Below are positions 2,936 through 64,000 of a stretch of 64,000 nucleotides of DNA, piece by piece. The position numbers and the translations under genes are program-made. This stretch comes from an uncultured Verrucomicrobiae bacterium. Its GTDB lineage: Bacteria > Verrucomicrobiota > Verrucomicrobiia > Limisphaerales > JAFGQR01. Position 1 is the first letter of the stretch, and each line of letters begins with the position of its first letter. The notes beneath the pieces were generated by a model, which ran no database searches, was not told the origin of the DNA, and worked only from the letters and a program-made list of their open reading frames with translations. The DNA is taken from assembly GCA_963788655.1 (NCBI GenBank), contig CAWBHS010000060.1:342907-406906 (forward strand). The letters run 5' to 3'.

Positions 2936-2983
2936 GAGTTTACTGGGACCTTCCGTTTGAATCTTCGTTGCCTTTTTGAACCA

Positions 2984-4961
2984 GTAGAGTAGAGAGGAAA
3001 GCACGGAATGAAAGGCCCGAAAACCAATGACCGCCGCTTCCCTCTCCCTCGTCGAACCGGACATGGAGATTTCCCCCATCCGGCTCTCGCCAGTGTCGGC
3101 TCTTCCACAAAGCATTCACAACGCAACCAGTCCCAGATGGTCCAAGTGAGCATACAGGCTGACGCCCTCACGGGCTCGCCAACCCCGTTGGCTGCGACGT
3201 TGCAGATGCCGTCCCAACCGATACCGCACGAAGTGATTGAGCTGACGAAATGCCTTCCGCGGATAGCCCAACTTGAAGTAGTTGGACCAACCCCGCAGGT
3301 GACGGTTCACCCGTCCAATCAACTCCGGCATGGGCGTATGACTCTGATGCGGGTTGATCAACCCTCGCAACGCTTTCCGTTCCCGATCCATCGTTTTGCG
3401 CGACGGTTCCAGGTTCCAGTAACGCTGCGGCCGACCGTATTGATCGCGGTCATACCGAAAGGTGTAGCCCAGGAAATCCAGGCTCTGGCCCGATTGCTTC
3501 AAATCCACGATCCGAGTTTTATCCCGGTTGATTTGCAGGTCCAGCCAGCCTTCCAGTTTGCCCTCGATCCATTCCCGCAACTTCGGACTGATGTAGCGAG
3601 CCATGACCACGAAGTCGTCCGCGTAACGGATCAGCTTCGCTTTGGCCCATTGCGCCGGTCCATCTCCTCGTTGGAAGAGGTGGTCGAACCAGTGCAAATA
3701 GACATTGGCCAGCAAAGGCGAAAGCACTCCACCTTGGGGGGTGCCCCGGTCGTTGCGTCGCACCGTGGGTGGTTGTCCCCCTGGGGGCGGTTCCACCACC
3801 GGCGCCTTGAGCCATTGTCGGATCAGTCCCAGGACCGAACCGTCCACCACGCGCATCCGCACGCAAGCGATCAGCTTATCGTGGGGAATGCTGTCGAAGT
3901 AGCCAGCCAAATCCGCATCATACACCGCCGTTTGACCCTCCTTCAGGTGCTGTTGGATGGCGCGCAAGGCATCGTGCGCCGATCGTCCGGGCCGAAACCC
4001 GTGGGAGCAGTCTTCAAAGTCGGCTTCGAAGATCGGCTCCAGGATCAGCAACACCGCCGCTTGCACCACCCGGTCCCGCACCGTCGGAATGCCCAACGGC
4101 CGCAACTTGCCGTTGGCCTTCGAGATATACACCCGCCGCACCGCTTGGGCACGATAGGTTTTGTCCCTCAGGCTCCGTTCGATCTCGGACAGAAATGCCG
4201 CTTCGCTTTCCGGCGTCGTGGTGATCTGTTCGATGCTCACTCCGTCCACGCCCGGCGCACCGTCGTTGCGCCGCACCGCGGCCCAAGCCGCTTGCAGCAC
4301 GTCGGTTCGATACACCAAAGCGTAGAGACTGTAGAAGCGAAACCGCTTCTGTTGTTTGGCTTTCTGGCCCAGCTTCTGTCTCAGTTCCCGCAGGCTCGGC
4401 GGCAGGATCGCTTCCCGGAAGGAAAGTTCCTCCACCGCTTCTTCTGTTGTAGGAATGAACTCCATCCCAATCAGCTCCGGATTCCTCTGACTCGGCTTGA
4501 CTCTGGCCAGGGCTCCTTGGCTCCCTGCCAACTTGATCGGCAGATCGACGCTACTATGAGCCCATCCGACGCCGCGATTCGGCCCCACCAGCGGTTATGG
4601 CTTCCCGCCAGGGGTTGTCCTGCGTTACAGGCCAGGACTCCGAACCGGGCCTCCCAAGTTCCCAGTGGTTCTTTCTGCGCGCGCTGTCTCCTCTCACCCC
4701 GGGGAGTCCGGTCGGTGCATGGGATCGAATCTTCCCGACCGATGCGGGCTTCACCACATCCGGCAGGCTGGCCACTCCCAGTTTTGTGTAACGAGGCCGA
4801 ACCGAGTTCGCGGAACGCTACGGCTCGCGCATTGGCCTTCCCCAGCTTCAACGGGCAGGATCGCTCCCACCCGCTTAAGGGTCGGCTACATGACTCTCGA
4901 CCATTTATCATGGTTAACACGTTGCAGTTAACAAGAACCACCAAGCTTGCTTGGCGCTTTC
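2984..4961 (-). mobile_element. Group II intron (ribozyme plus RT/maturase)
   Basis: On the minus strand, domain V GAGCCGGATGGGGGAAATCTCCATGTCCGGTTC (~3075-3107) is followed by a domain VI hairpin and the 3' end CTACTCTAC (2984). The 5' end reads GAAAGCGCCAAGC (4961). It encloses an RT ORF. Confidence 0.92.
3116..4465 (-). CDS. ltrA: Group II intron reverse transcriptase/maturase, no C-terminal endonuclease domain
   Basis: Motifs [39 protein letters not shown] and RYADD, then maturase X domain LRGWSNYF. The protein ends without an HNH domain. The start at MEFIPT is inferred. Confidence 0.95.
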
Positions 4962-5052
4962 CGAATTGACACTAATTAATGGGATTTCCCAACCGGTGTC
5001 AAAACGCTACTCGGTACCTTGAATTCGTGGTAATTCGTGTAATTAGTGTCTT
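4962..5052. repeat. REP-like palindrome built from (A/C)CAC(G/T)AATT units; intron target
   Basis: gaattgacactaatt (4963-4977) is inverted relative to gaattcgtggtaattcgtgtaattagtgtc (5021-5050). Confidence 0.7.
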
Positions 5053-18091: not shown

Positions 18092-21000
18092 TCAAGGCGC
18101 CAGCAGGACGCGATAATAGCGGTGGGCTTCGGCGCCCGCGGTTAGATCCGTCGCGCTGCCGGTGGTGCTGGTGGCTGTCACGATGCCGGGCAGATCGGTC
18201 CATTCCGGATCGGTGACCGAGTTCTTGTATTGGACCCGATAGGCCCTTCCTGGCACGGCATACCACAGGATGGTCATGTGATCGCTGCCGGGCGAAGTAA
18301 TCGTTAACACCTGAAGCACCGAATCCCCATTGGTCGGGTCCGTGCCGGCGCGGAATTCCTCGGCATCGGTTTGTCCGTCGTGGTCGGAATCGGCGGTGCC
18401 GTCATGATCGAGATTATCGAAATAGGCCATCTCCCAATCATCATCCAGTCCGTCGCCATCGGTATCCATGCTTCCCAGGTGCAGTACGAACAAATCGGCA
18501 TGATCGTTGTAGTCGCCGGCCACCAGATCGCTGGCGGAGCTTTGGAAGACCAACGTTTTACCGTCGGCGGAGAACAGGGGGCGCTGCGAGCGGCTGTTGC
18601 CGATTTCGCCGCTCAAGTTGGCGCTCAAGAGCAGCGTGCGGTTGCGCAGGCGATCATACAGGTAAAGGTCCTGGGCCCATCGACGCAAGGACGTGGTAGC
18701 GCCCGCGGCCGGATAGTTCGTGAACGAATGCTGGGTGACGTAGTGCGCGCCCAGGAACGCCACAAACCGTCCCTCCGGGCTTACCCAGGGACTGGCAAAG
18801 CGCCAATCGGCGGATGGGTCGTTGGTCGGCAGGAGACTGGTGGCGATCATATTGGTCCAACCAGTTTGCAAATCCATCAGCAGGATGTTGGTGGCCCACG
18901 GGGCGTAGCACTTCAGTTTTTCGCAGGCGAGCCAGCGTCCATCAAAACTGAGCGACGGCGCCTGGCAGGCGACGGCCACGGCGCGATTGGTGACGGTTTC
19001 AAAATCATAGACAAAAATGCTCTCAGCATGATCGCATTGATACGCGGTGGACCAAGCCACATAGGCGACGTAACGTGAATCACCGCTCCAGGTGGCGTTC
19101 CCGGTGTAACGCTGGGAACTCATGCTCCAGGGGAACAAAGTGACCAAGCAGGTCCGCCCTGTCGGCAGGTCGCGGGCGAATAATGAAACCTCCCCGTAAA
19201 GGTGATTGGTCACTTCCTCGCTGTCTCCGCTGGCAAACAGCAGCCAGCGTCCGTCCGGGCTGAAGCCCTCGAACGACGAGCTCGAATGGGCTGTGTAGGG
19301 GGTCGTTCGCCATCGTGATATATTGAGCGCTTGGTTGGTGCCGGCCATCATGTCGCGCAGAAAGACGTCTGATCCCGTGTTGTCATCAGTAATGCCCGGC
19401 ACGAAGGTTTCCGCTGGCAACGAGCTTTGGAACGCGACGTATTGGCCGTTCGGGCTAAGGGCGAACACATCGATCGAACCAGTCATTATCCCATTCGTAT
19501 CGACATCGACCGGATGCCGTAACCCGCTTGCCCGGTCCACCCAGAAAACGTGGTTGCTGGAGTCCACGAAATCAGGACCCGGTCGCCGGGCAAAGACCGC
19601 GTATTGCCCGTTGCTGCTGAGCACCGCCTGGCTGGCCGCCGAATCGGATTCGAACATGCCGCTGGCGTCGGTGCTCAATGGGGCAATGGCTCCGGTGCTC
19701 AAATCCTGCACAAACACGTCGCTCCAGCCGTTGGTGTCGCCCGGCACCAGCAGGCTGTCATCGCTGGCAAACGCCACATACCGGCCATCGCTGCTGAGAC
19801 CATGTTCATCGGCTCGCGTGGCGGCAATGCCGGTTTGTTGCGGCCGAGTTGCGGTGCGTTCGGAAATCAACGTGGTTAAACCGGCCGCAACGTCGCGCAC
19901 GAAAACATCCGTCGCCCGGTTCAAATCATCCGCCACCAGATCATCGGCCCTGCTGGTGAACGCGACTTTCTTTGCGTCCGCGCAGAAGGCCAACATGGCC
20001 GCGCCATTGTCCGCGGCGCTGACGGTGCCGTCGGGTTGCACGGTGATCAGTTGGGTGGTCTGGGCCGTCAGGTCGCGGAGAAAGACTTGACCGGACCCAC
20101 CAGTTGCCGCGGCGCAGAGATCCGTTGCGGCGCTGATGAACACGACTTTGCTCCCATCGGGCGAAAGCACCGCGTCGTAAGCCGGGGCATTGCCCGGACC
20201 GGTGCCGGTCAGGTTAATGTTGACCAAAGTGGTGGTTGCGGTTTCGGCGTCCCACACATAGACATTCGTGCCGTCTTCGTAAGCCAGCCAGCGCCCGTCG
20301 CCGCTCAGCGAGGGCGAGATCTGATTAGGGAGGTTCGTGGCAACGAGAAACGTCGTCGGCAAATCGTTGGTCACGACATTGTAAAACAGCGAGAAAGGTC
20401 CCGTAAACCGTTGCAAATCGCCCCAGCCATCAAACCGCGCCTGGCCGACGAGAAAGACGATCCGTTCGCCATTGGTGCTCATCACCGGGTTCAAGCATCC
20501 CATGTCGGTTTGATTGGTCGGATAGTACGAGGGGAGCCAATAACTGACCCGGACATCCCGGCCATGCGGTGGAACGCGGCAATAAATTTCCATCAGGAAG
20601 CTGTTCCGGAATCATTCTCCAACAGGCGACTGGCCGCGCTGGCGAACAAAACAAAATGCCCGTCCGGGGTCATGCTGGCCTGCCGGGAACGACCATCACC
20701 CGGTTCGGCCGTGTTCGAGCCGTACCATCGGTCGTTGCTCACCAGCGTGGTCTGACCGGATGACACGTCGTACAGATAAACCTGGTTGGTGGCGACACCG
20801 GCGGAAGGTCTCGTTGGTTCACCACTTTCAAACAGCACCCAGCGACCGTCAGCGGAGAGTTGAGGATTCGATGCGGGACCGCGCACCGAAGGCAAAGGCG
20901 GAATGCCCTTGCCGGAAACACCCGCGCTCACCAACCGCGTCGTCCCGGCCACCAGGTCGCGTAGGAATATGTCGGCGCCGTTGTTCGTGTCGCCGGACGC

Positions 21001-21390
21001 CAGATTGTTCGCCGCACTGGCAAACGCCACGAATTGGCCATTGGCCGAAATCGAAGGGTAGCCCGCGTCCCCATTGCCGCCGCCGATGCCGTTGGTATTG
21101 ACGCTGACCAGGATAGTTTGTCCCGATTCCAGGTTGCGCACAAACACATCCAGGTAGGGCGCCAAGTCATCGTTGGTCACCAGGTTGGGCGCGTGGCTGA
21201 GAAACACGAGGAATCGGCCATCGGCGCTGAACTGCGGCATGAGCGAATTCCCGGACGCAGTTCGGCTCGAGGCCAGGATGCCGTTGGGAGCGATGACCTG
21301 GGGGGAATTCTGGGCCGCGCTGCACAAGCAGGTCGGACAACAGGCCAACGGGACTACTCCGAAAGCAAGGCATAGGAAAATCGTCCTCAT
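18092..21390 (-). CDS. Secreted TolB-like/PD40 beta-propeller protein with Ca-binding DTDGDG repeats (probable frameshift at 20593)
   Basis: Signal peptide, many S.DGR.VAF.S.A.NLV..D.N...DVF repeats, DTDGDGLDDDWE, and a verrucomicrobial-type C-terminus YRVQYK..W..RYYRV. The two ORFs abut as TGATG. Confidence 0.85.
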
Positions 21391-21404
21391 GGGAACTCGC
21401 TCTT

Positions 21405-22259
21405 TCAGTACAACGTTTTCAGAAAATGCAGCCCAGTCGCCTCCCGCCAACTGTGCGTCAGCACTTGCCGCAGTCCGGCGCTGGAAGTTGATTGCACCTC
21501 GCCGTCTTTAAGCAGGACGTTACCCACGGTGCCGTGGATGGCGGGAAGCCATTCGGTGTCGTACTCGGTGCCCGTCCAATCGACGCCGACTGCGGTCGTA
21601 ACGCCTGAGGCGCAATTGACATTGTAGCTGCCGAATTTCATGTTGCGGTCGCCCGCGAGCACGGCGCGCGGATATTCAGCGCGCGCGTGCAGGCCGAGGA
21701 AGTAACTGACGGAGTTACCACGATGGGTGCCATCCAAGAAGCCAATATCAGGCGAACGGCTGAAATCAACGGCCGGCTTTGCCGCCGGATCGGCCGGACA
21801 GGCCAGGGCGGATGCGTGGACCAGTTCGTTGGAGATCCACCCATATTGGAACCAGAGGTTATTCTGGTATCCCAGCCAGGGCGGAATCGGAACGGGGCTC
21901 GGGCAAAGTCGAATCCGCGTCCCCCCTTCGTTCACGCAAGTCCAGAAGGGCAATTCGCCCCCGTGATCGCTAGCCCACAATTGAAACGCCAGGCCGATCT
22001 GTCGCAGATTGTTCAAACACGCCGCCCGGTCGCCCTGCGATCTGGTGTTCCCCAGTGCTGAGATGGCGATACACCCCAACAGCGCCAGCGCGGCCAGCAC
22101 CGCTGCCAATTCGATGCGGGTGAAGGCGGATTGGCTGGGGGATGGCCGTGGATGCTGCGATGGGCTGTAGGCAACGGTCGGGAGCTTGGGAATACGGTTC
22201 TCTGGCGCGATGAGATAGCGCCGGGCCCGAGGCAAAGGAATTAACTTTCCAAACGGCAT
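21405..22259 (-). CDS. Prepilin-type N-terminal cleavage / H-X9-DG domain protein
   Basis: Motifs AFTRIELAAVLAALALL, CLNNLRQIGLAF, LACPAD and HGTVGNVLLKDG. Confidence 0.85.
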   Translation of the reverse strand: MPFGKLIPLPRARRYLIAPENRIPKLPTVAYSPSQHPRPSPSQSAFTRIELAAVLAALALLGCIAISALGNTRSQGDRAACLNNLRQIGLAFQLWASDHGGELPFWTCVNEGGTRIRLCPSPVPIPPWLGYQNNLWFQYGWISNELVHASALACPADPAAKPAVDFSRSPDIGFLDGTHRGNSVSYFLGLHARAEYPRAVLAGDRNMKFGSYNVNCASGVTTAVGVDWTGTEYDTEWLPAIHGTVGNVLLKDGEVQSTSSAGLRQVLTHSWREATGLHFLKTLY

Positions 22260-22353
22260 GGGTATCTTCGTATCACAAACCCTTGGCTTCGGCAAGCGCG
22301 AATTCAGACTTCCGGTACGTGATTAGCGCCCAGATGGGAACGGGACGTGATCG

Positions 22354-22580
22354 GTCGCGCCAGCGTTTGGAGTGCGCCCGGCTTGCCGGGGCTGTCGGGT
22401 GGGCAGCGACCGTCGAATCGTTTTGCGTGCTGCTTTGGTCTGGGCGCGTCCGGCTGGAACCAAAGCGGGAGCAAGCGCCACGCACTCCCGACGCTTCGCG
22501 AATCACGGAAACCTTCAGTTGGAAAGGGGAGCGCGCCCGCCCCGGGCGCGGTGGTTGGCGCCTCGCCAACCACTCCGGAG
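22354..22580. repeat. Composite REP-like element
   Basis: gtcgcgccagcgtttggagtgcg...cgcactcccgacgcttcgcga is followed by the gggagcgcgcccgccccgggcgc motif. Copies lie at 26644-26870 and 29233-29381. Confidence 0.75.
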
Positions 22581-22791
22581 AACGCGAATCCCACTCATCA
22601 GTGACAGCTCGGTCGCCGGGGTAATGCCGCACGCCCAGCCGATTTCGCAGAATTTCATGGATTTTCGACCTTCCGCACGTCTACCGAAGGCAAACAGAAC
22701 AACCCGACACACCACGCGCAAAACCGAGCGAGCGGGCGAAGGGGCCGGCAATCGGTTCTGCTGGCCAAGAACCAGCCCAAGCCAGCGGTAG

Positions 22792-54172: not shown

Positions 54173-55189
54173 GGGGTCAGTCCCGCTAATTGGTAGTCAC
54201 CGGTTTTCTTGGGCACTACGCAAGCAATAGGTCACCATGCTGGTACTGCCCATGGCCAGCCGCTGTGCGATCCAACTCAACGTCATCGTGGTTTCCCGGC
54301 GCAGCCGCAGCGCCATCGCCACTTTTCCCACATCGCCTTTGCGCCGGATCGTCAATTCAGCTTCATCCCATCCTAATCGCTGCAATTCCCCCTGTACGAT
54401 GCGCTCCGCGATGACCACCGCCGATTCCTGACGTTCCTCTCCTCCGTGATGCGCGCCCAAGCCACCGGCCATTTGCGCCAACAATTCCTCCCGAAACTGC
54501 GAATCCCCAAGGCACCATCCGTGCCGCACTTCATTGAATTCTGCCCCGGATTCCGTCGCGCGTCGTGACTCCAACGCTTGTTCGAGCCGACGCCGGCCAG
54601 CAGCGCTATCCTGCGGAATCCGATACTCGCCAAGCAAACGATCCACTCGCAGCCACGGCCATCGTCGTGAGGGCGGTTTCAAGTATTCCGGCCAACTGCT
54701 CCAGCCATACGTCCGCTAACGCCTGCTCCGGCTTCACCAGACTTGGCCCGCGCCGGATTCAAATGCACGTAGTCACAAACCGTCTTCAAATACCCGTTGC
54801 CGCTTCCGTCCACGATCAACGCCTTGTAACGGCCGCTGAACAAATGCCCGAAAACTTTGTGCCGCCGGTTGAACCGCCCCGTGTAGGTTCCCAGAAACCA
54901 TTTCATCCCCGCCACCAAGTCGCCGTCGCGGCGTCTCCACCACCAGATGAAAATGATTGGGCATCAGACAAAGCGCATGCACTTGCCAGCCCGCCTTGCG
55001 CGCAGGCCTCACCCAGCGTGCTCACGAACCGCTGCCGGTCCTCATCATCCTTGACGATCGGCTCGCGCCGATCGCCCCGATTCATCACATGATAAATCGC
55101 CCCGGGATATTCCACTCTGAGCTTGCGTGCCATGATGGGTGGCAGGATGTCGCAATCCAATTGTATTGTCAATTACCGGGACTGACCCC
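54173..55189 (-). mobile_element. RAYT/Y1 transposase element bounded by 20-bp inverted repeats
   Basis: ggggtcagtcccgctaattg (54173-92) matches the reverse complement of 55170-89 at 19/20 positions. TTGACA overlaps the upstream IR. Confidence 0.8.
54197..55133 (-). CDS. RAYT-like Y1 transposase with C-terminal HTH (several frameshifts)
   Basis: Motifs MARKLRVEYPGAIYHVMNRG, MPNHFHLVVETP, GHLFSGRYK, YVHLNP and LRRETTMTLSWIAQRLAMG. Confidence 0.85.
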
Positions 55190-57176
55190 CTGGATGCGGC
55201 CGAATTTCTTTTCGAGTTCGCGGTAGCTCATTTCGATGAGGGTGGGACGACCGTGCGGGCAGGTGTAAGGCATGGCGCAGCAGCGGAGGTCGTGGAGCAG
55301 TTGTTCGAGTTCGGGGCCGGCCATCGGGTCGTTGGCTTTGATGGCGTGGCGGCAAACGGTCTTGGCAATGGTGTCTTCGCCCAATCGATGGGAGTGTGAC
55401 TTCCTGGCCGGCGGCTTTGAGACCATCGACTAACTCGAGCACGAATTGCCGGGGCTGGGAGACCTTTACAAACGGAGGCAGCGCGTCGAGCAGGAACGTG
55501 CGTTCGCCGAACTCGTTCAAACCCACGCCCAAGCGCGTCAAGGACGGCAAAAGCTCACGCACAAATTGGGCGTCGCGCACTGATAGCTCGACTGTTTCCG
55601 GCAACAGCAAGCGCTGCGACGGCGCCTGTCCTTGGGCCATTCGGTCGAGCATTTGTTCGAACAAAACGCGTTCGTGAGCGGCGTGTTGATCCATGAGCAC
55701 CAGGCCGCGATCCGATTCCAACACCACATACAATCTGCCGATCACGCCCACCAGACGGAGAGGGACTTTGAGCAACGGGGTGGGTTCGGCAGGGGCGAGA
55801 GCTGGGGCAGGTTGGGCGATCGGTGGGCGAGCGTTGGCGCAGGTGTTGCCGGCGCATTCGAAAACTCAATGCCAGGTCGTGCTTCCGGAGCCGAAGCATT
55901 TTGTTCGGTTGGTGCCGGTGAAGGCGGCACACGGTCGATGCGGTGATGCTGGAGGCATCGCCAGCGGCGCGCCGGTCAATTCGGTGAAGTTGGGGAATTC
56001 ACGCGGCACTGCGGTGGGGGATTCGTCCACTTTGGTGGGAGCCGCCGTCGGAGCGCTGCTGGCTGGCGCGGCGTTTGTGACCGAATCCGTGCCGGAATGA
56101 AAGTCCAGCAAGGTTCGGCGCACTGCGTCGCTGACGAACTGGCGCACGACCCGGTCGTTGTGGAATTTCACTTCGCGCTTGGCCGGATGCACGTTCACAT
56201 CCACCAGCGCGGGATCCATTTCCAAAAACAGACAACACACCGGATACCGGCCTTTCATCAGCGCGGTGTGGTAGCCCTCGAGCAAGGCATAATTCAGCGT
56301 GCGGCTCTCGACCGGGCGGCGGTTCACGAACACGTATTGGTCCTCCCGCGTGGCGCGCGACACGCCGGGCTGGCCCAGACAACCCCACAACCGAATCGAC
56401 GACGGCGGATGAGCGGATCGTGTTTCCGCCTCGGCCGCTTCGGAATCGATCACCGCTTCCAGTTGGGCCGTGTGATCAACGGCGAGCAACTGTTGTTCGT
56501 TCCCGAACAATGCGCGCAACCGCTCGCGCAACGCCTGCAGCCGAGCCGCATTGGTGGGTTCGTGTTTGACTGCCGGTAACTGCCAGACCTGACGTCCGTC
56601 CCGGATCAGGTTGAACGCCACGTGCGGATGCGCGAGCGCGGCCAAGGTTAAATAATGATGAATGTGGGCGTATTCGGTTTCTTTGCTCCGAAGAAACTTC
56701 CGGCGGGCCGGCAGGTTGAAGAAAAGTTGGCGCACTTCCAGGCACGTGCCCGCGGGGCTGCCGGCGGCTTTGACATCAAGGATTTTGCCGCCGTTGATGA
56801 TGATCCGCGTGGCTTCCTCCGCCTCTTCGCGCTCGCGGGTGGTCAAGGTCAGGCGGCTGACGCTCGCAATGCTGGGCAAGGCTTCACCGCGAAATCCCAT
56901 CGTGGCGATGGCCTGCAAATCTTCGGCGCGCTGAATCTTGCTGGTGGCGTGACGTTCCAGACTCAGCAACGCGTCATCGCGGCTCATGCCCGCGCCGTCG
57001 TCGGTCACGCGAATGAGGCTGCGTCCGCCCGCCTGGATTTCCACCGTGATGCGGTCGGCTCCGGCATCGAGCGCATTCTCGACCAGTTCCTTGACGACGC
57101 TGGCCGGACGTTCCACCACTTCGCCGGCGGCAATCTGGTTGGCAACGTGATCGGGGAGCAGGCGAATCCGGTTCAT
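55169..57176 (-). CDS. mutL: DNA mismatch repair protein MutL (two frameshifts)
   Basis: Motifs NQIAAGEVVERP, GFRGEAL, DVNVHPAK, the endonuclease motif DQHAAHER and CPHGRP. Confidence 0.95.
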
Positions 57177-57253
57177 CGAAATGACGGTGCGGGAACAATC
57201 AACTCGTTGGGGCGATCAGCATTCATGAACACAGGCCGAACCTACGAGGGAGG

Positions 57254-59716: not shown

Positions 59717-60085
59717 GTGAATAGAATGTCCAAATCCAAAATGAAGGTGCCAGGACAAACGTGGCCAGGAATGATTGAAAGTGTGCTGAAAACTGCCATG
59801 TATAAAGGGAAGTTGTTTCCCATACTCTTTTCTGGAGTAATGGGCTTGTTCATCTATAAAATGCCCCCTGAAGATCTGGGATCTTTGGCAGGAGAGATTT
59901 ACCAGGACATAAAGTCGCATCAGATTTTGGGCTACGTTTTAGCTTGCATTACGTTGCTGGCGTGGTTCATTCACCTACGGTTGCAACGAAGAGTTTTTAC
60001 TGCTGAAATGAAGCGTGCCACGGAAGAAAAAACCCGATGGCAGAAAGCGAATTTGGGTGATCAAATAGAGTCCAGTCGCACATGA
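59717..60085 (+). CDS. Hypothetical two-TM protein (low GC)
   Basis: GGAGG RBS region and two hydrophobic segments; the start is uncertain. Confidence 0.65.
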   Translation: MNRMSKSKMKVPGQTWPGMIESVLKTAMYKGKLFPILFSGVMGLFIYKMPPEDLGSLAGEIYQDIKSHQILGYVLACITLLAWFIHLRLQRRVFTAEMKRATEEKTRWQKANLGDQIESSRT

Positions 60086-60594
60086 AAACGCTGCTTTATG
60101 TATTCGTCCTGTTTTTCGTAATTCACTTCGTTTACGAGATTATCATCTTACCTACCATTCGAGTAAGTCTGAGGTTTCGCTTCTTCGCTCTCAGAGATCG
60201 TCTTCGGTGGTTAAAGCAACAGCATCCCGAGATGGAAGATGATATTTATAAGCTGTTTCAAAACTCAATTAATACCAGCATTAAGATGCTTTCCCGAATC
60301 GACATGCAGACGTTGAATGCTGTGCAGGCGGCCGTCAGGAGCGACGAAAGCTTTCGCAAACGGATTCAACGCCGGATTGAACTGATTGATGGTTGTGAAT
60401 TGGAGGAAGTGCGAAAGCTGGATCGGGTGCTGTATGCCACAACTTGCAAAGCAGTATTCGCGAACAGCGCCATGTTCTTCATCTATTTGGTTCCGTTTCT
60501 CACTTTGTATGGGCTGAAGGAAGCATTACGCAGTTTTCTGGCGACCCCTGAACCAGAGATTAGCAAGTTTATTCCAGACGCGTCGCCGGCTTAA
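60082..60594 (+). CDS. Hypothetical membrane protein (low GC)
   Basis: ATGA overlap with the previous gene; N- and C-terminal TM segments. Confidence 0.7.
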   Translation: MKTLLYVFVLFFVIHFVYEIIILPTIRVSLRFRFFALRDRLRWLKQQHPEMEDDIYKLFQNSINTSIKMLSRIDMQTLNAVQAAVRSDESFRKRIQRRIELIDGCELEEVRKLDRVLYATTCKAVFANSAMFFIYLVPFLTLYGLKEALRSFLATPEPEISKFIPDASPA

Positions 60595-60826: not shown

Positions 60827-60913
60827 TGGTACCGATGGAGGGGCTCGAACCCCCACTCCCTCGCGGGAACCAGATTTTCAGTCTAGCGCGTCTGCCAATT
60901 CCGCCACATCGGC
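60827..60913 (-). tRNA. Class II tRNA with Leu-type body; anticodon reads GAA (Phe)
   Basis: Acceptor stem GCCGATG/CATCGGT plus ACCA; D-arm GGCGGAATTGGCAGACGCG; anticodon arm CTAGA-CTGAAAA-TCTGG; long variable arm; T-loop TTCGAGC. Confidence 0.93.
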
Positions 60914-61039: not shown

Positions 61040-61270
61040 ACGGCGCAATTATTACCACAAGACTCTCGACAACCGCAAGCATCCAATTCGCGGTTTGTGG
61101 AATGGTGGGATGGTGGAAAGGCCACGGCAAATTCATCGCCCGCATCACACCGGAAAACAATACGGGACCAGGGAATTCGGACGGGGGCCGCTGGCAGCAA
61201 CCACGTGACTCAAGCCGTGGCGGGTGGGGAAATTCAAACGCAATGACATGAAACGCATACAGACTTCCAC
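61040..61270 (+). pseudogene. Probable N-terminal remnant of a tyrosine integrase
   Basis: YHKTLDNRKHPIRGLW..GKFIARIT resembles, from memory, the arm domain of verrucomicrobial integrases. It is next to a tRNA and cut by the IS21 end. Confidence 0.45.
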
Positions 61271-61449
61271 CAACAACGTTAGCGCTCACGAGAACTGACC
61301 CGGGTGTGCTCATGAGAAGTGACCCACCTGGATGGAAGGCGGAGGGATTCCCTTTCCAAGGAGGAAGGCGGAGGAAAGGAAAAACCCTTGTCCCACCTCG
61401 ACAGCCCGGGGGCCGTTCTGGTAGGACAAGGGCGCTTTAACCAACTTCA

Positions 61450-62019
61450 GTGTACATAGCGAGAGCCTCGCTTTTTTGCAACGGAGATCGCGGCGCGATT
61501 TCGATTCGAACCGAGATGGTATCGGGCTGAAGCGGTCGCGCCGCTGGTGGGTTCGTATTACGTCGAGTGCGATCGGTGTTGCGGAACAAGCCGTGGCTGC
61601 GGAAGTGCCAGGCCCGATGCCGGCACTGCGGAATCTTCTTTCTGACGGACCGGCGCAATGCCGGGCGGGAGGATTTGGGCTGTCCGTTTGGCTGTAGTCG
61701 GGAACATCGGCGGCGGGAGTCGACGCGGCGCAGCGTGGCGTATTACCGGGAGCCGGAGGGTAAGGTAAAGAAGCAAGCCCTCAACGCGCGGCGGCCGTCA
61801 CGGGGGAGGAAAGCGCCGCCGGCTCGGATCGATCCGGCTCCGCCGGGCCGGCGGGCGATGCTGGCGTATCTGTGCGTGTTGGTCGGGCTGATCGAAGGGC
61901 GGCGGGTCGAGCGCTGGGAGGTGATCGGGATGCTGGCGCGGACGCGGAGACAACACCGCATGGTGCGCAGGCGCCGATTGGATCAGGGTGTGGCCTGGTT
62001 CCATGAACGACCGCCCTGA
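61450..62019 (+). CDS. Hypothetical Cys-rich protein inside the IS (5' part frameshifted or uncertain)
   Basis: CQARCRHCGIFFLTD.RNAGREDLGCPFGC. Confidence 0.6.
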
Positions 62020-62938
62020 ACCTCCCGAAGGCCGTTCGAGCGCCACCGCACTGGTGGAAGTGGCCCAGTTGGATCTTCGGTACGAGGGCTGCCGGCTCAA
62101 AGCGCCGGCGGCCGAGGCCCGGCTGTTGTCGGCGATCGCGGCGGGCGGCATCCAGGAGCCGTTGCAGGGGGTGGAGGTCGCGGGCGTGCGAATCCTGCTC
62201 AACGGCTTCAAGCGCCTGCGCTGCGCCCAGAAGCTGCATCTGGCCACGGTGCCGTTCGTGGCGCTGGCCGCGGACGAAACGGCCGGCATCGTGTGTTTGT
62301 TGCGCGCGGCCAATGATCACGCGTTGTCGTTGCTCGAACAGGCCCGGTTCCTCGATGAGCTCAAGGGCATGGGCGGCCTGAGCCTGGCCGAGATCGCCCA
62401 GCAGGTCGGGCGCAGCCCGGCCTGGGTGAGTTTGCGTCTGGGCGTGCTGGCCGAACTGAGTCCGCTGGTGCGCGGGGCGCTTTTCGACGGAACCTTTCCG
62501 GTTTACTCCTACCTCTACACCCTGCGGCCGTTTAGGCGTCTAAACGGCGCGGCGGCCCTCGACGAGTTCGTGGCGGCGTTGCGCGGCAAAAAACTCAGTG
62601 CCCGGCAAATCGAGCAGTTGGCGCACGGTTTTTTCCGCGGCCCGGAGTCGTTGCGGGAGCAGATCCGCCAAGGGCATCTGACCTTGCCGCTGCAACAGCT
62701 CAAGGAGTTGCCCGAGGATCCGGACGGGTGCAGCGAGTTTGAACGCCGGGTGGTCGCGGATCTGGAGCAGGCCCAGAGGATCCTGGTCCGCCTCATGACC
62801 AAAAGCACCGATCCCAGCCGACTCTCCAGCCGTCCGTTTCGCGCCCAAGCCCATTTGCTGTGCGCCGGGTTGCTGTCCCGGTTGCCGGCCTTCACTAAAA
62901 CCATCCAAAAACTCCATGATCACTGCGGACAAACGTAA
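62003..62938 (+). CDS. ParB/Srx-like N-terminal domain plus HTH protein
   Basis: LLSAIAAGGIQEPL..LLNGFKRL; HTH LAEIAQQVGRSPAWVSLRL. Confidence 0.8.
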   Translation: MNDRPEPPEGRSSATALVEVAQLDLRYEGCRLKAPAAEARLLSAIAAGGIQEPLQGVEVAGVRILLNGFKRLRCAQKLHLATVPFVALAADETAGIVCLLRAANDHALSLLEQARFLDELKGMGGLSLAEIAQQVGRSPAWVSLRLGVLAELSPLVRGALFDGTFPVYSYLYTLRPFRRLNGAAALDEFVAALRGKKLSARQIEQLAHGFFRGPESLREQIRQGHLTLPLQQLKELPEDPDGCSEFERRVVADLEQAQRILVRLMTKSTDPSRLSSRPFRAQAHLLCAGLLSRLPAFTKTIQKLHDHCGQT

Positions 62939-64000
62939 AGCGGTCTTCCTGTTGCATCAGGAAGGCGTCCCCAAGCGGGCCATTGCCCGTCAACTTCGAC
63001 TCAGTCGCAACGCGGTGCGGCGGATTATCACCCAGTCCGGGCAGATGCCCCCGCCCATTCGCCCGCCGCGAGTGGTGTTGGATGGCGACCTGTTGCGCCA
63101 ACTGCACCAGGAGTGTGAGGGCTACGCCCAGCGCATGACCGAAAAGCTGCGGGAAGAACACGGCATCACGGTCAAATACTCGACCCTGACGCGGCATCTG
63201 CGGGACCTGGGCATCACCGGCCCGAGTCCGGCGCGCTGTCAAAAAGTGCCCGACGAACCCGGAGCGGAGATGCAGCATGATACCAGCCCGTTCACAGTGT
63301 GGGTGGGCCCGCAGCGGCTGCGGCTGCAGGCCAGCCTGCTTTATCTGCGGTATTCCAAGCGGCGGGATCTGCAGTTCTACCCCGTCTTCGATCGCTTTCA
63401 CCTGAAGTGCTTCCTGCATCTGGCCTTGATGCATTGGGGTTATGCGCCGCGGGTCTGCGTCATCGACAACACCAATCTGGCCCGTTGGCGCGGGTTGGGC
63501 GCTCGCGCGGTGATGGTCCCGGAGATGGAAGTCTTCGCGCGCGGCTACGGCTTCAAGTTCCTGTGCCATGCGCCCAAGCATGCGGATCGGAAAGCAGGCG
63601 AGGAACGCAGCTTCCTGACCGTCGAAACCAACTTCATTCCGGGCCGCACGTTTACCAGTCGGAGGATCTCAACCACCAAGCTCTGGCGTGGTCCACCGTG
63701 CGGATGGAACAGCGACCGCAGGGCAAGGCCGGCCTCATTCCCGCGCAGGCCTTCGAATACGAACGCCAGTTCCTGACGCCACTGCCCCGGCATCTCCCGG
63801 CCCCTTACCAACTGTTGGATCGTTCCATCGACGAATACGGCTTCGTCGCCGTCGAGGGCAATTACTACGAAATGCCCGGCACCGGCCGGGGACAGGTCCA
63901 GGCGTTGCGCTACCTCCATCACGTGGTTCTTGGCCAGGATCGTCGCGCGGTGATCCAATACGCCCTGCCACCCTGGGGCGTGAAGAACCAGATCGTGCGC
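62916..64000 (+). CDS. istA: IS21 family transposase (frameshift at ~63660; runs off the window)
   Basis: HTH RAIARQLRLSRNAVRR; DDE motifs PGAEMQHD, VIDN and KAGEER. Confidence 0.9.

Follow-up and report, generated by a model that had tools for sequence, protein, structure and literature searches.

The exchange of C34 for G in a leucine tRNA is reported as a natural allele of human tRNA-Leu-CAA-3-1 (rs1032415115), for which leucine was found at phenylalanine codons by mass spectrometry, and a tRNA-Leu(GAA) engineered in yeast is reported to have lowered growth to 45% of the control (PMC11028032). The change from CAA to GAA is identical to the one read in the gene described here, and in either setting the synthetase is one that ignores the anticodon. 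The human variant is, however, a rare eukaryotic allele of one copy among many isodecoders, whereas the present change would have struck a bacterium in its single Leu(CAA) gene. The nematode nev-tRNAs, in which a class-II leucine-type body carries another anticodon, are reported to be leucylated in vitro (PMC3333845, PMC4300185); they are described as conserved across nematodes and as having Gly or Ile anticodons, whereas the present change was seen in one genome only. In bacteria, a disagreement between body identity and anticodon that leads to encoded mistranslation is reported for tRNAProX of Streptomyces and Kitasatospora (PMC11415595). It is presented there as lineage-conserved extra copies, whereas the change described here affects the only housekeeping gene and is absent from the relatives.

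The leucine identity set of E. coli is given as A73 (crucial), A14, A15–U48, G18G19, A20a and a 3-bp D-stem, and neither the anticodon nor the long arm is said to matter to LeuRS; G34, A35, A36 and A73 are listed as the four universally conserved determinants of PheRS (all from PMC9976931). The present gene has the locus, the body, the type-II architecture, A73, A14, A15–U48, G18G19, A20a and A37–A38 in common with bacterial tRNA-Leu(CAA) (leuX-type, UUG-specific), and differs from it at position 34, where this assembly has G instead of C. With canonical tRNA-Phe(GAA) it shares the GAA anticodon, the CU-GAA-AA loop and A73; the latter differs from the 87-nt tRNA in its length of 76 nt, its short variable loop, U20 and U59.

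The gene is located in the window, i.e. the whole stretch of 64,000 nt that was analysed, and the features at the locus are as follows:

60827 to 60913, minus strand: type-II tRNA gene of 87 nt, ortholog of tRNA-Leu(CAA) that reads GAA here (ARAGORN, Rfam, orthologs)
60877 to 60879, minus strand: anticodon GAA (plus-strand ttc); the disputed base G34 is the plus-strand c at 60879 (C60:403785), and relatives have C34
60830, minus strand: discriminator A73 (plus-strand t)
60827 to 60829, minus strand: encoded 3′ CCA (from the sequence)
61068 to 61094, minus strand: conserved block common to the congener, about 155–180 nt upstream of the tRNA (alignment columns 19–45; tblastx, blastn)

The gene at 60827–60913 (minus strand) was the sole tRNA called by ARAGORN in the 64-kb window, where it was labelled Phe(gaa) with the anticodon at position 35. 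The Rfam model RF00005 matched 60830–60913 on the minus strand over model positions 1–71 of 71 (53.3 bits against a gathering score of 29, E 1.2e-8). The anticodon loop reads CU-GAA-AA, and the variable region of 15 nt forms a 4-bp stem with a tetraloop. In our own numbering, the D-arm reads G10-C11-G12, followed by G13 A14 A15 U16 U17 G18 G19 C20 A20a G21, and U48 precedes the T-stem. Judged by these letters, the D-loop and A15–U48 are an E. coli-type leucine D-loop and Levitt pair; the whole D-arm is identical to those of the Leu(CAG) and Leu(GAG) genes of the same genome. No mismatches were found in the acceptor, anticodon and T stems by a position-based check in the same numbering (this check mis-registers tRNAs that have no encoded CCA, and those were examined by eye). 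The folding energy of the tRNA alone was not distinctive (z −0.84), as is usual for tRNAs; the case for a tRNA rests on the covariance-model match and on the orthologs.

All leucine features that were looked for are present (A73, A14, A15–U48, G18G19, A20a, the 3-bp D-stem, the long variable arm and orthology with leucine tRNAs), with the exception of the anticodon, which, being GAA, lies outside the leucine set (NAG or YAA). On the phenylalanine side, G34, A35, A36 and A73 are present, whereas a class-I body with U20 and U59 is not: the tRNA has the 15-nt variable region, C20 and G59. The preliminary description had listed a length of 87 nt, a long variable arm, A73, a Leu-type D-loop and a CT-GAA-AA loop, and each of these agrees with the sequence, ARAGORN and Rfam; the leucine-type body that it had proposed is upheld by the identity elements and by the tRNA-Leu(CAA) orthologs. 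The PheRS determinants of the tRNA (GAA and A73) had been overlooked in it.

Orthologs were searched for in 41 genomes (the own genome, one congener and 39 from other families of the same order), and a match to the tRNA was present in 40 of them, the own genome included. From 29 fetched loci of relatives (L002–L030), ARAGORN called 28 genes, all of them full-length Leu(CAA); the remaining locus (L018), which is cut by a contig end, likewise reads CAA, so that CAA stands in 29 of 29 loci. The earlier statement that the anticodon is one substitution away from Leu(CAA) thus holds. The Leu(CAA) gene of the congener is identical in 85 of 87 bases, the differences being position 34 (C against G) and one base of the variable loop. 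For the other ortholog pairs of tRNAs from these two genomes, 0–8 base differences were counted, and those in tRNA-Asn, which were inspected, are compensated in the stems. On the downstream side, homology with the congener goes on for 13 nt past the tRNA, and on the upstream side for about 180 nt, where it takes in the conserved block at 61068–61094 (alignment, tblastx, blastn). This block shows the locus to be orthologous through the 5′ side of the tRNA, and because homology continues in both directions the locus is taken to be ancestral on both sides. By these alignments, the 87-nt tRNA is an ortholog of tRNA-Leu(CAA). In a sample of the phylum (401 genomes), 334 genomes matched a pattern of D-arm and anticodon loop that allows C or G at position 34; C34 was present in all 150 matches listed, besides which there are 189 further matches. 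No locus with the G form was titled as belonging to this phylum in a scan of 185,579 species genomes (titles as the records give them).

The assembly amounts to 8.96 Mb in 115 contigs and is 86% complete with 5.6% contamination. ARAGORN made 50 tRNA calls in it, 44 of which were kept, in agreement with the Rfam count of 44; the other six were rejected as false positives. The rejected calls and the tRNA-Phe of the genome are collated below:

C22:119393, C22:150864, C60:285908, C89:46610, C91:15149 and C91:27562: false-positive tRNA calls (poor stems, no Rfam match)
C78:76102–76177: canonical tRNA-Phe(GAA), 76 nt, with short variable loop, U20 and U59

The tRNA-Phe, for which a short variable loop had been assumed beforehand, has such a loop in this genome. 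The leucine genes elsewhere in the assembly have the anticodons CAG, GAG, UAG and UAA, and no Leu(CAA) gene other than 60827–60913 was found by ARAGORN in this 86% complete draft. The Leu(UAA) gene, on contig C58, is a second reader of UUG; the preliminary description had made its reading depend on the presence of another such tRNA, and one is thus available. According to a count over 1,892 long ORFs, some of them possibly spurious, UUG makes up 26.6% of the leucine codons (24.8 per 1000) and is the second commonest of them, UUA makes up 2.1%, and phenylalanine codons occur 39 times per 1000. Loss of Leu(CAA) is expected to be costly because UUG is so heavily used. A real C34G change would be doubly costly, as it would starve UUG decoding and would also hit about 4% of all codons.

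The rarity of such tRNAs was determined with a pattern of a Leu-type D-arm followed by a CUGAAAA loop, which was run over the 185,579 species genomes and a metagenome collection. It gave 19 loci in the genomes and 28 in the metagenomes. Most of these are tRNA-like but degenerate, or are 5′ pieces of a truncated tRNA-Leu, or match by chance within coding sequence. Only two of the 19 genome loci (L039 and L046, both in MAGs) are full-length tRNAs that reach 50 bits or more. At a threshold of at least 47 bits over the pattern, full-length tRNAs comprise these two from genomes and four from metagenomes (L054, L057, L065 and L076), L058 being the same contig as L046. Their positions (47–61 bits) are:

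L039, 1484–1569: full-length Leu-type GAA tRNA
L046, 1458–1541: full-length Leu-type GAA tRNA
L054, 170–256: full-length Leu-type GAA tRNA
L057, 1458–1540: full-length Leu-type GAA tRNA
L065, 1484–1566: full-length Leu-type GAA tRNA
L076, 330–414: full-length Leu-type GAA tRNA

Full-length Leu-type tRNAs with GAA are thus of the order of 1e-5 per genome. The consulted part of the tRNAscan-SE 2.0 paper (PMC8450103) holds no usable rate of mismatches between body and anticodon in bacteria. The full-length sequences come from unrelated assemblies (a Lachnospiraceae MAG, an Absconditabacterales MAG and four metagenome contigs) and represent the same candidate oddity.

Two further kinds of sequence were encountered with the pattern. 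In marine Flavobacteriaceae, a Leu-type D-arm with a CUGAAAA loop is situated inside tRNA clusters, beside genes for tRNA-Phe, tRNA-His and tRNA-Gln:

L034, L035, L042 and L047 (Tenacibaculum), L040 (Aquimarina) and L060 (metagenome), pattern at about 1501–1524: Flavobacteriaceae-type loci

Their acceptor stems are unpaired or the span is 147–150 nt, and Rfam gave only 29–37 bits; judged by sequence, this appears to be a tRNA-like element that is conserved but degenerate or interrupted. At L038/L070, L059, L063/L067, L064, L066 and L068/L075, tRNA-Leu is truncated to a 5′ half that breaks off just past the CUGAAAA loop. In two cases, L068 and L075, an intact tRNA-Leu(CAA) follows some 70 nt downstream of the fragment. 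These halves are possibly scars of elements that recombined at the anticodon loop.

The preliminary description had cautioned that the assembly is error-prone, mostly through indels, and this was confirmed in rpoB, rpoC, synthetase genes, mutL and the IS21 transposase gene. The Rpb2_6 domain of rpoB is split across two frames, and class-I aaRS genes are split across several; since these genes are essential, the breaks in rpoB, rpoC and the synthetase genes are ascribed to the assembly and not to biology. When C45:50113–56703 (rpoB/rpoC) was aligned with four relatives, 12 private indels of 1–2 nt (10 insertions and 2 deletions, none in homopolymers) were counted in C45:53915–56164 (the 3′ part of rpoB and the 5′ part of rpoC), against 0 in C45:50977–53900. 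The errors thus cluster in bad stretches, at about 5 per kb. Within the window, mutL (55173–57215, minus strand, 4–5 kb from the tRNA) has intact N-terminal domains and a linker that is out of frame with a stop; its MutL_C domain breaks off at position 117 of the 142 in the profile, and an Arg/Pro-rich out-of-frame tail follows. The breaks resemble the indels of rpoB/rpoC and are probably assembly errors; if they were real, the strain would be a mutator. The tRNA is thus flanked by indel errors, at −5 kb on one side and at +0.65 kb and +2.8 kb on the other, although the region at 57.2–59.5 kb appears intact.

A gene for a PD40/WD40-like beta-propeller (18092–22680, minus strand) is present as four overlapping ORFs in different frames, probably through three more frameshift errors. 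Many other contig ends overlap at 95–99% identity (e.g. C18, C19 and C41 over 7.3 kb), which points to repeats or strain variants as what breaks the assembly.

Substitution errors were assessed on the same rpoBC alignment. In the clean part, 40 private substitutions were counted for the own genome and 45 for the congener; in the indel-ridden part, the counts were 22 and 40. Private non-synonymous changes at otherwise invariant residues numbered 10 in the own genome, all conservative, and 18 in the congener. No substitution errors were hence detectable in rpoBC relative to the congener and the other relatives. Five copies of a group II intron (1,984 nt each) differ by three singleton substitutions (two synonymous, one E-to-D) and by no indel. 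The other 43 genuine tRNAs score like those of the congener (53–74.5 bits). Besides G34, just one base in the set of 44 tRNAs is suspicious: tRNA-Asp (C26:37530–37606) has an uncompensated C6·A67 in its acceptor stem, where the congener has U6–A67. No rRNA genes that could have served as a yardstick for substitutions were found in either the own genome or the congener. A systematic error at a methylation motif (GAGTC of the relatives read as CAGTC) was rejected, GAGTC occurring 8,523 times with an observed/expected ratio of 0.79 and CAGTC having a ratio of 0.93. On C81, a match to a class-I aaRS contains an in-frame TGA that was considered as a candidate substitution error, but its frames are too scrambled to tell. 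Altogether, substitution errors were undetectable in the roughly 16 kb tested (public contigs, introns, rpoBC); the local substitution error is estimated at between 1e-5 and 1e-3 per base.

Public sequencing data were searched for the same organism. The search gave 21 runs, the best of which shares 0.11 of the sampled words, and four runs were mapped to the window. None of these four covered 60827–60913 with reads of the same organism; the depth over the tRNA consists of 31–48-nt pieces of Leu tRNAs of other organisms, with 1–4 differences. The same or a very near strain is present in two public runs at a depth of 2–3. In the interval from 61345 to 62312, some 724 unique bases could be compared with four same-strain public contigs; 0 substitutions and a single insertion, of a C, were seen:

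Behind 61567, plus strand: extra C in a public contig of 323 nt that is independent of the assembly and agrees with it at every other base; the site is 650 nt away from the tRNA

By this comparison, the site at 61567 is probably a 1-nt deletion error of the assembly.

The following features were identified around the tRNA:

60082 to 60594, plus strand: ORF in a phage-associated family (phrog_24550, E 4.8e-25), 232 nt beyond the 3′ end of the tRNA
61925 to 62938, plus strand: weak ParB/KorB-like ORF (Pfam KorB and HTH_ParB below the cut-off; PHROG ParB-like 7.6e-5; TIGR00180 30.8 bits, below the cut-off)
62799 to 63997, plus strand: IS21-family transposase gene in two frames, in a repeat that ends the contig (NF033546, profile positions 3–251 and 242–294)

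The ORF at 60082–60594 had neither a Pfam nor an NCBIfam match. The contig end lies inside the IS21-family element (62424–64000, C60:405330–406906), which also starts two other contigs (C65:1–1575 and C66:1–1320) at 99.1% identity. Among these three copies, a 1-nt deletion at about 63660, by which the transposase gene is split, is private to the copy in the window. The window copy has 2 private substitutions in 1,320 nt, and the three copies differ at 11 substitution sites, which are clustered with indels; these differences may be due to copy divergence or to error, and, as differences between IS21 copies and at contig ends mix the two, the counts are a hint and not an error rate. No integrase was found near the tRNA by Pfam, PHROG and NCBIfam profile searches, and no displaced tRNA fragment was found in the assembly, the matches within the own genome being other Leu tRNAs only. 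The "integration hotspot" proposed for this site in the preliminary description thus applies only loosely: a weak ParB-like ORF and an IS21 transposase are present 1–3 kb upstream at the contig end and a phage-family ORF downstream, but neither an integrase nor a tRNA fragment was found with them.

The most probable explanation of G34 (plus-strand C at 60879) is an erroneous consensus base in a draft of low quality, i.e. the base itself is inferred to be wrong. The true anticodon would then be CAA, and the gene would be an ordinary tRNA-Leu(CAA), the single dedicated UUG reader of the organism; in the most probable reading, the mismatched tRNA is not a real feature. A consensus error is favoured because the orthologs all have CAA, the difference is confined to a single base, the assembly is poor, UUG decoding would suffer and such tRNAs are rare. 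It is ranked before a real variant since the base rate of real variants is no higher than the chance of this specific error and their likelihood is lowered further by the cost. Against an error, it counts that no read in the mapped public runs shows the alternative base, that substitution errors were undetectable wherever they were measured (rpoBC, public contigs, introns), and that no specific mechanism could be demonstrated for a G-to-C transversion at a non-repetitive site; the per-base rate of substitution errors may therefore not exceed the very low rate at which such variants occur in nature. A recent C34G change, fixed or at high frequency, by which the only tRNA-Leu(CAA) gene was turned into tRNA-Leu(GAA), is a serious if rather doubtful alternative. 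The gene is otherwise flawless (0 stem mismatches, all leucine identity elements, encoded CCA) and hence not a decaying pseudogene, substitution errors escaped detection in about 16 kb, and with a second UUG reader and a normal tRNA-Phe at hand the change need not be lethal. The same change occurs naturally in human tRNA-Leu-CAA-3-1, as reported in PMC11028032, and a few full-length Leu-type GAA tRNAs exist in other assemblies (L039, L046, L054, L057, L065, L076). However, the G is absent from 29 of 29 loci of relatives and from the phylum matches listed, UUG is the second commonest leucine codon, the draft has many errors within 1–3 kb of the gene, and tRNA-Leu(GAA) is reported to have cut yeast growth to 45% (PMC11028032). 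The broken appearance of mutL speaks for a real base insofar as a real defect would raise the mutation rate, but the breaks resemble the indel errors in rpoB and rpoC. Loss of mismatch repair favours transitions and indels and not a C-to-G transversion, which also counts against a real base.

If the base were real, LeuRS would be expected to leucylate tRNA-Leu(GAA), the leucine determinants all being present and the anticodon irrelevant; G34 would then read UUC/UUU and insert leucine at phenylalanine codons in competition with the normal tRNA-Phe, with tRNA-Leu(UAA) as the remaining reader of UUG. Through G34, A35, A36 and A73, PheRS might charge some of these tRNAs with phenylalanine and so blunt the effect; U20 and U59 are absent. 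The working natural missense suppressor proposed in the preliminary description is not supported by the results. A tRNA of this kind would in all likelihood be a deleterious or short-lived variant and not an evolved system; lineage conservation of the mismatched anticodon, as expected of an evolved mistranslator, was seen in 0 of 29 loci of relatives. It is considered unlikely that the G is real and that the only UUG-specific tRNA is now an expressed, leucylated tRNA-Leu(GAA), with phenylalanine positions partly occupied by leucine or with a tRNA shared by LeuRS and PheRS, a defect of mismatch repair having perhaps promoted the change. It is very improbable that an element integrated at the anticodon loop, brought along an imperfect tRNA half with G34 and so produced a hybrid tRNA. 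Such a hybrid would suit the IS21 transposase and the weak ParB-like ORF 1–3 kb upstream, the phage-family ORF downstream and the 5′ tRNA-Leu fragments that end just past the CUGAAAA loop on other metagenome contigs. Both halves of the tRNA nevertheless match the congener, with homology running upstream through 61068–61094 and over 13 nt downstream, no displaced fragment is present in the assembly, and the neighbourhood yielded no integrase. The integration-made hybrid was rejected on account of the congener homology past both ends of the tRNA and of the missing second fragment; none of the marks of a tRNA rebuilt by an element (partial tRNA copy, integrase, homology that ends inside the tRNA) was found. 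Least credible of all is the reading as a true tRNA-Phe, charged by PheRS and unusual in its long variable arm. GAA and A73 do supply the four conserved determinants of PMC9976931, but the gene is 98% identical to the Leu(CAA) of a relative and unlike the 76-nt tRNA-Phe of its own genome, it is devoid of the U20 and U59 found in the latter, and no such gene occurs in the relatives examined.

If the base is an error, a single wrong letter in a draft metagenome genome suffices to mimic a code-altering tRNA, and in assemblies of low quality a mismatch between anticodon and body should be backed by reads before any interpretation. If the base were real, the gene would add a bacterial case to a type of variant that is already known and would be a natural counterpart of the human C34G mistranslating allele. 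It would also be a rare bacterial tRNA in which leucine identity is set against a phenylalanine anticodon, would affect some 4% of the codons of a bacterium with a heavy reliance on UUG, and would bear on how much mistranslation is tolerated by wild bacteria and on the onset of sense-codon reassignment. The scan of 185,579 species genomes provides a useful base rate for such cases, namely two full-length tRNAs of at least 50 bits with the pattern.

Some further sequences of the window and the assembly were recorded. The conserved block at 61068–61094 may, from its position and conservation, be a promoter or regulatory element. The group II intron, which contains an RT/maturase ORF, is present in five copies that are 99.9% alike:

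2979 to 4962 of the window: group II intron copy
C60:18458–20441: group II intron copy
C39:88432–90415: group II intron copy
C107:1378–3361: group II intron copy
C68:5252–7235: group II intron copy

A related group II intron family is found on C14, C85 and C87. The region at 61300–62800, which includes the weak ParB-like ORF, has 90–97% identical contigs in wetland and freshwater metagenomes of other studies, and the element located there appears, from these matches, to be widespread.
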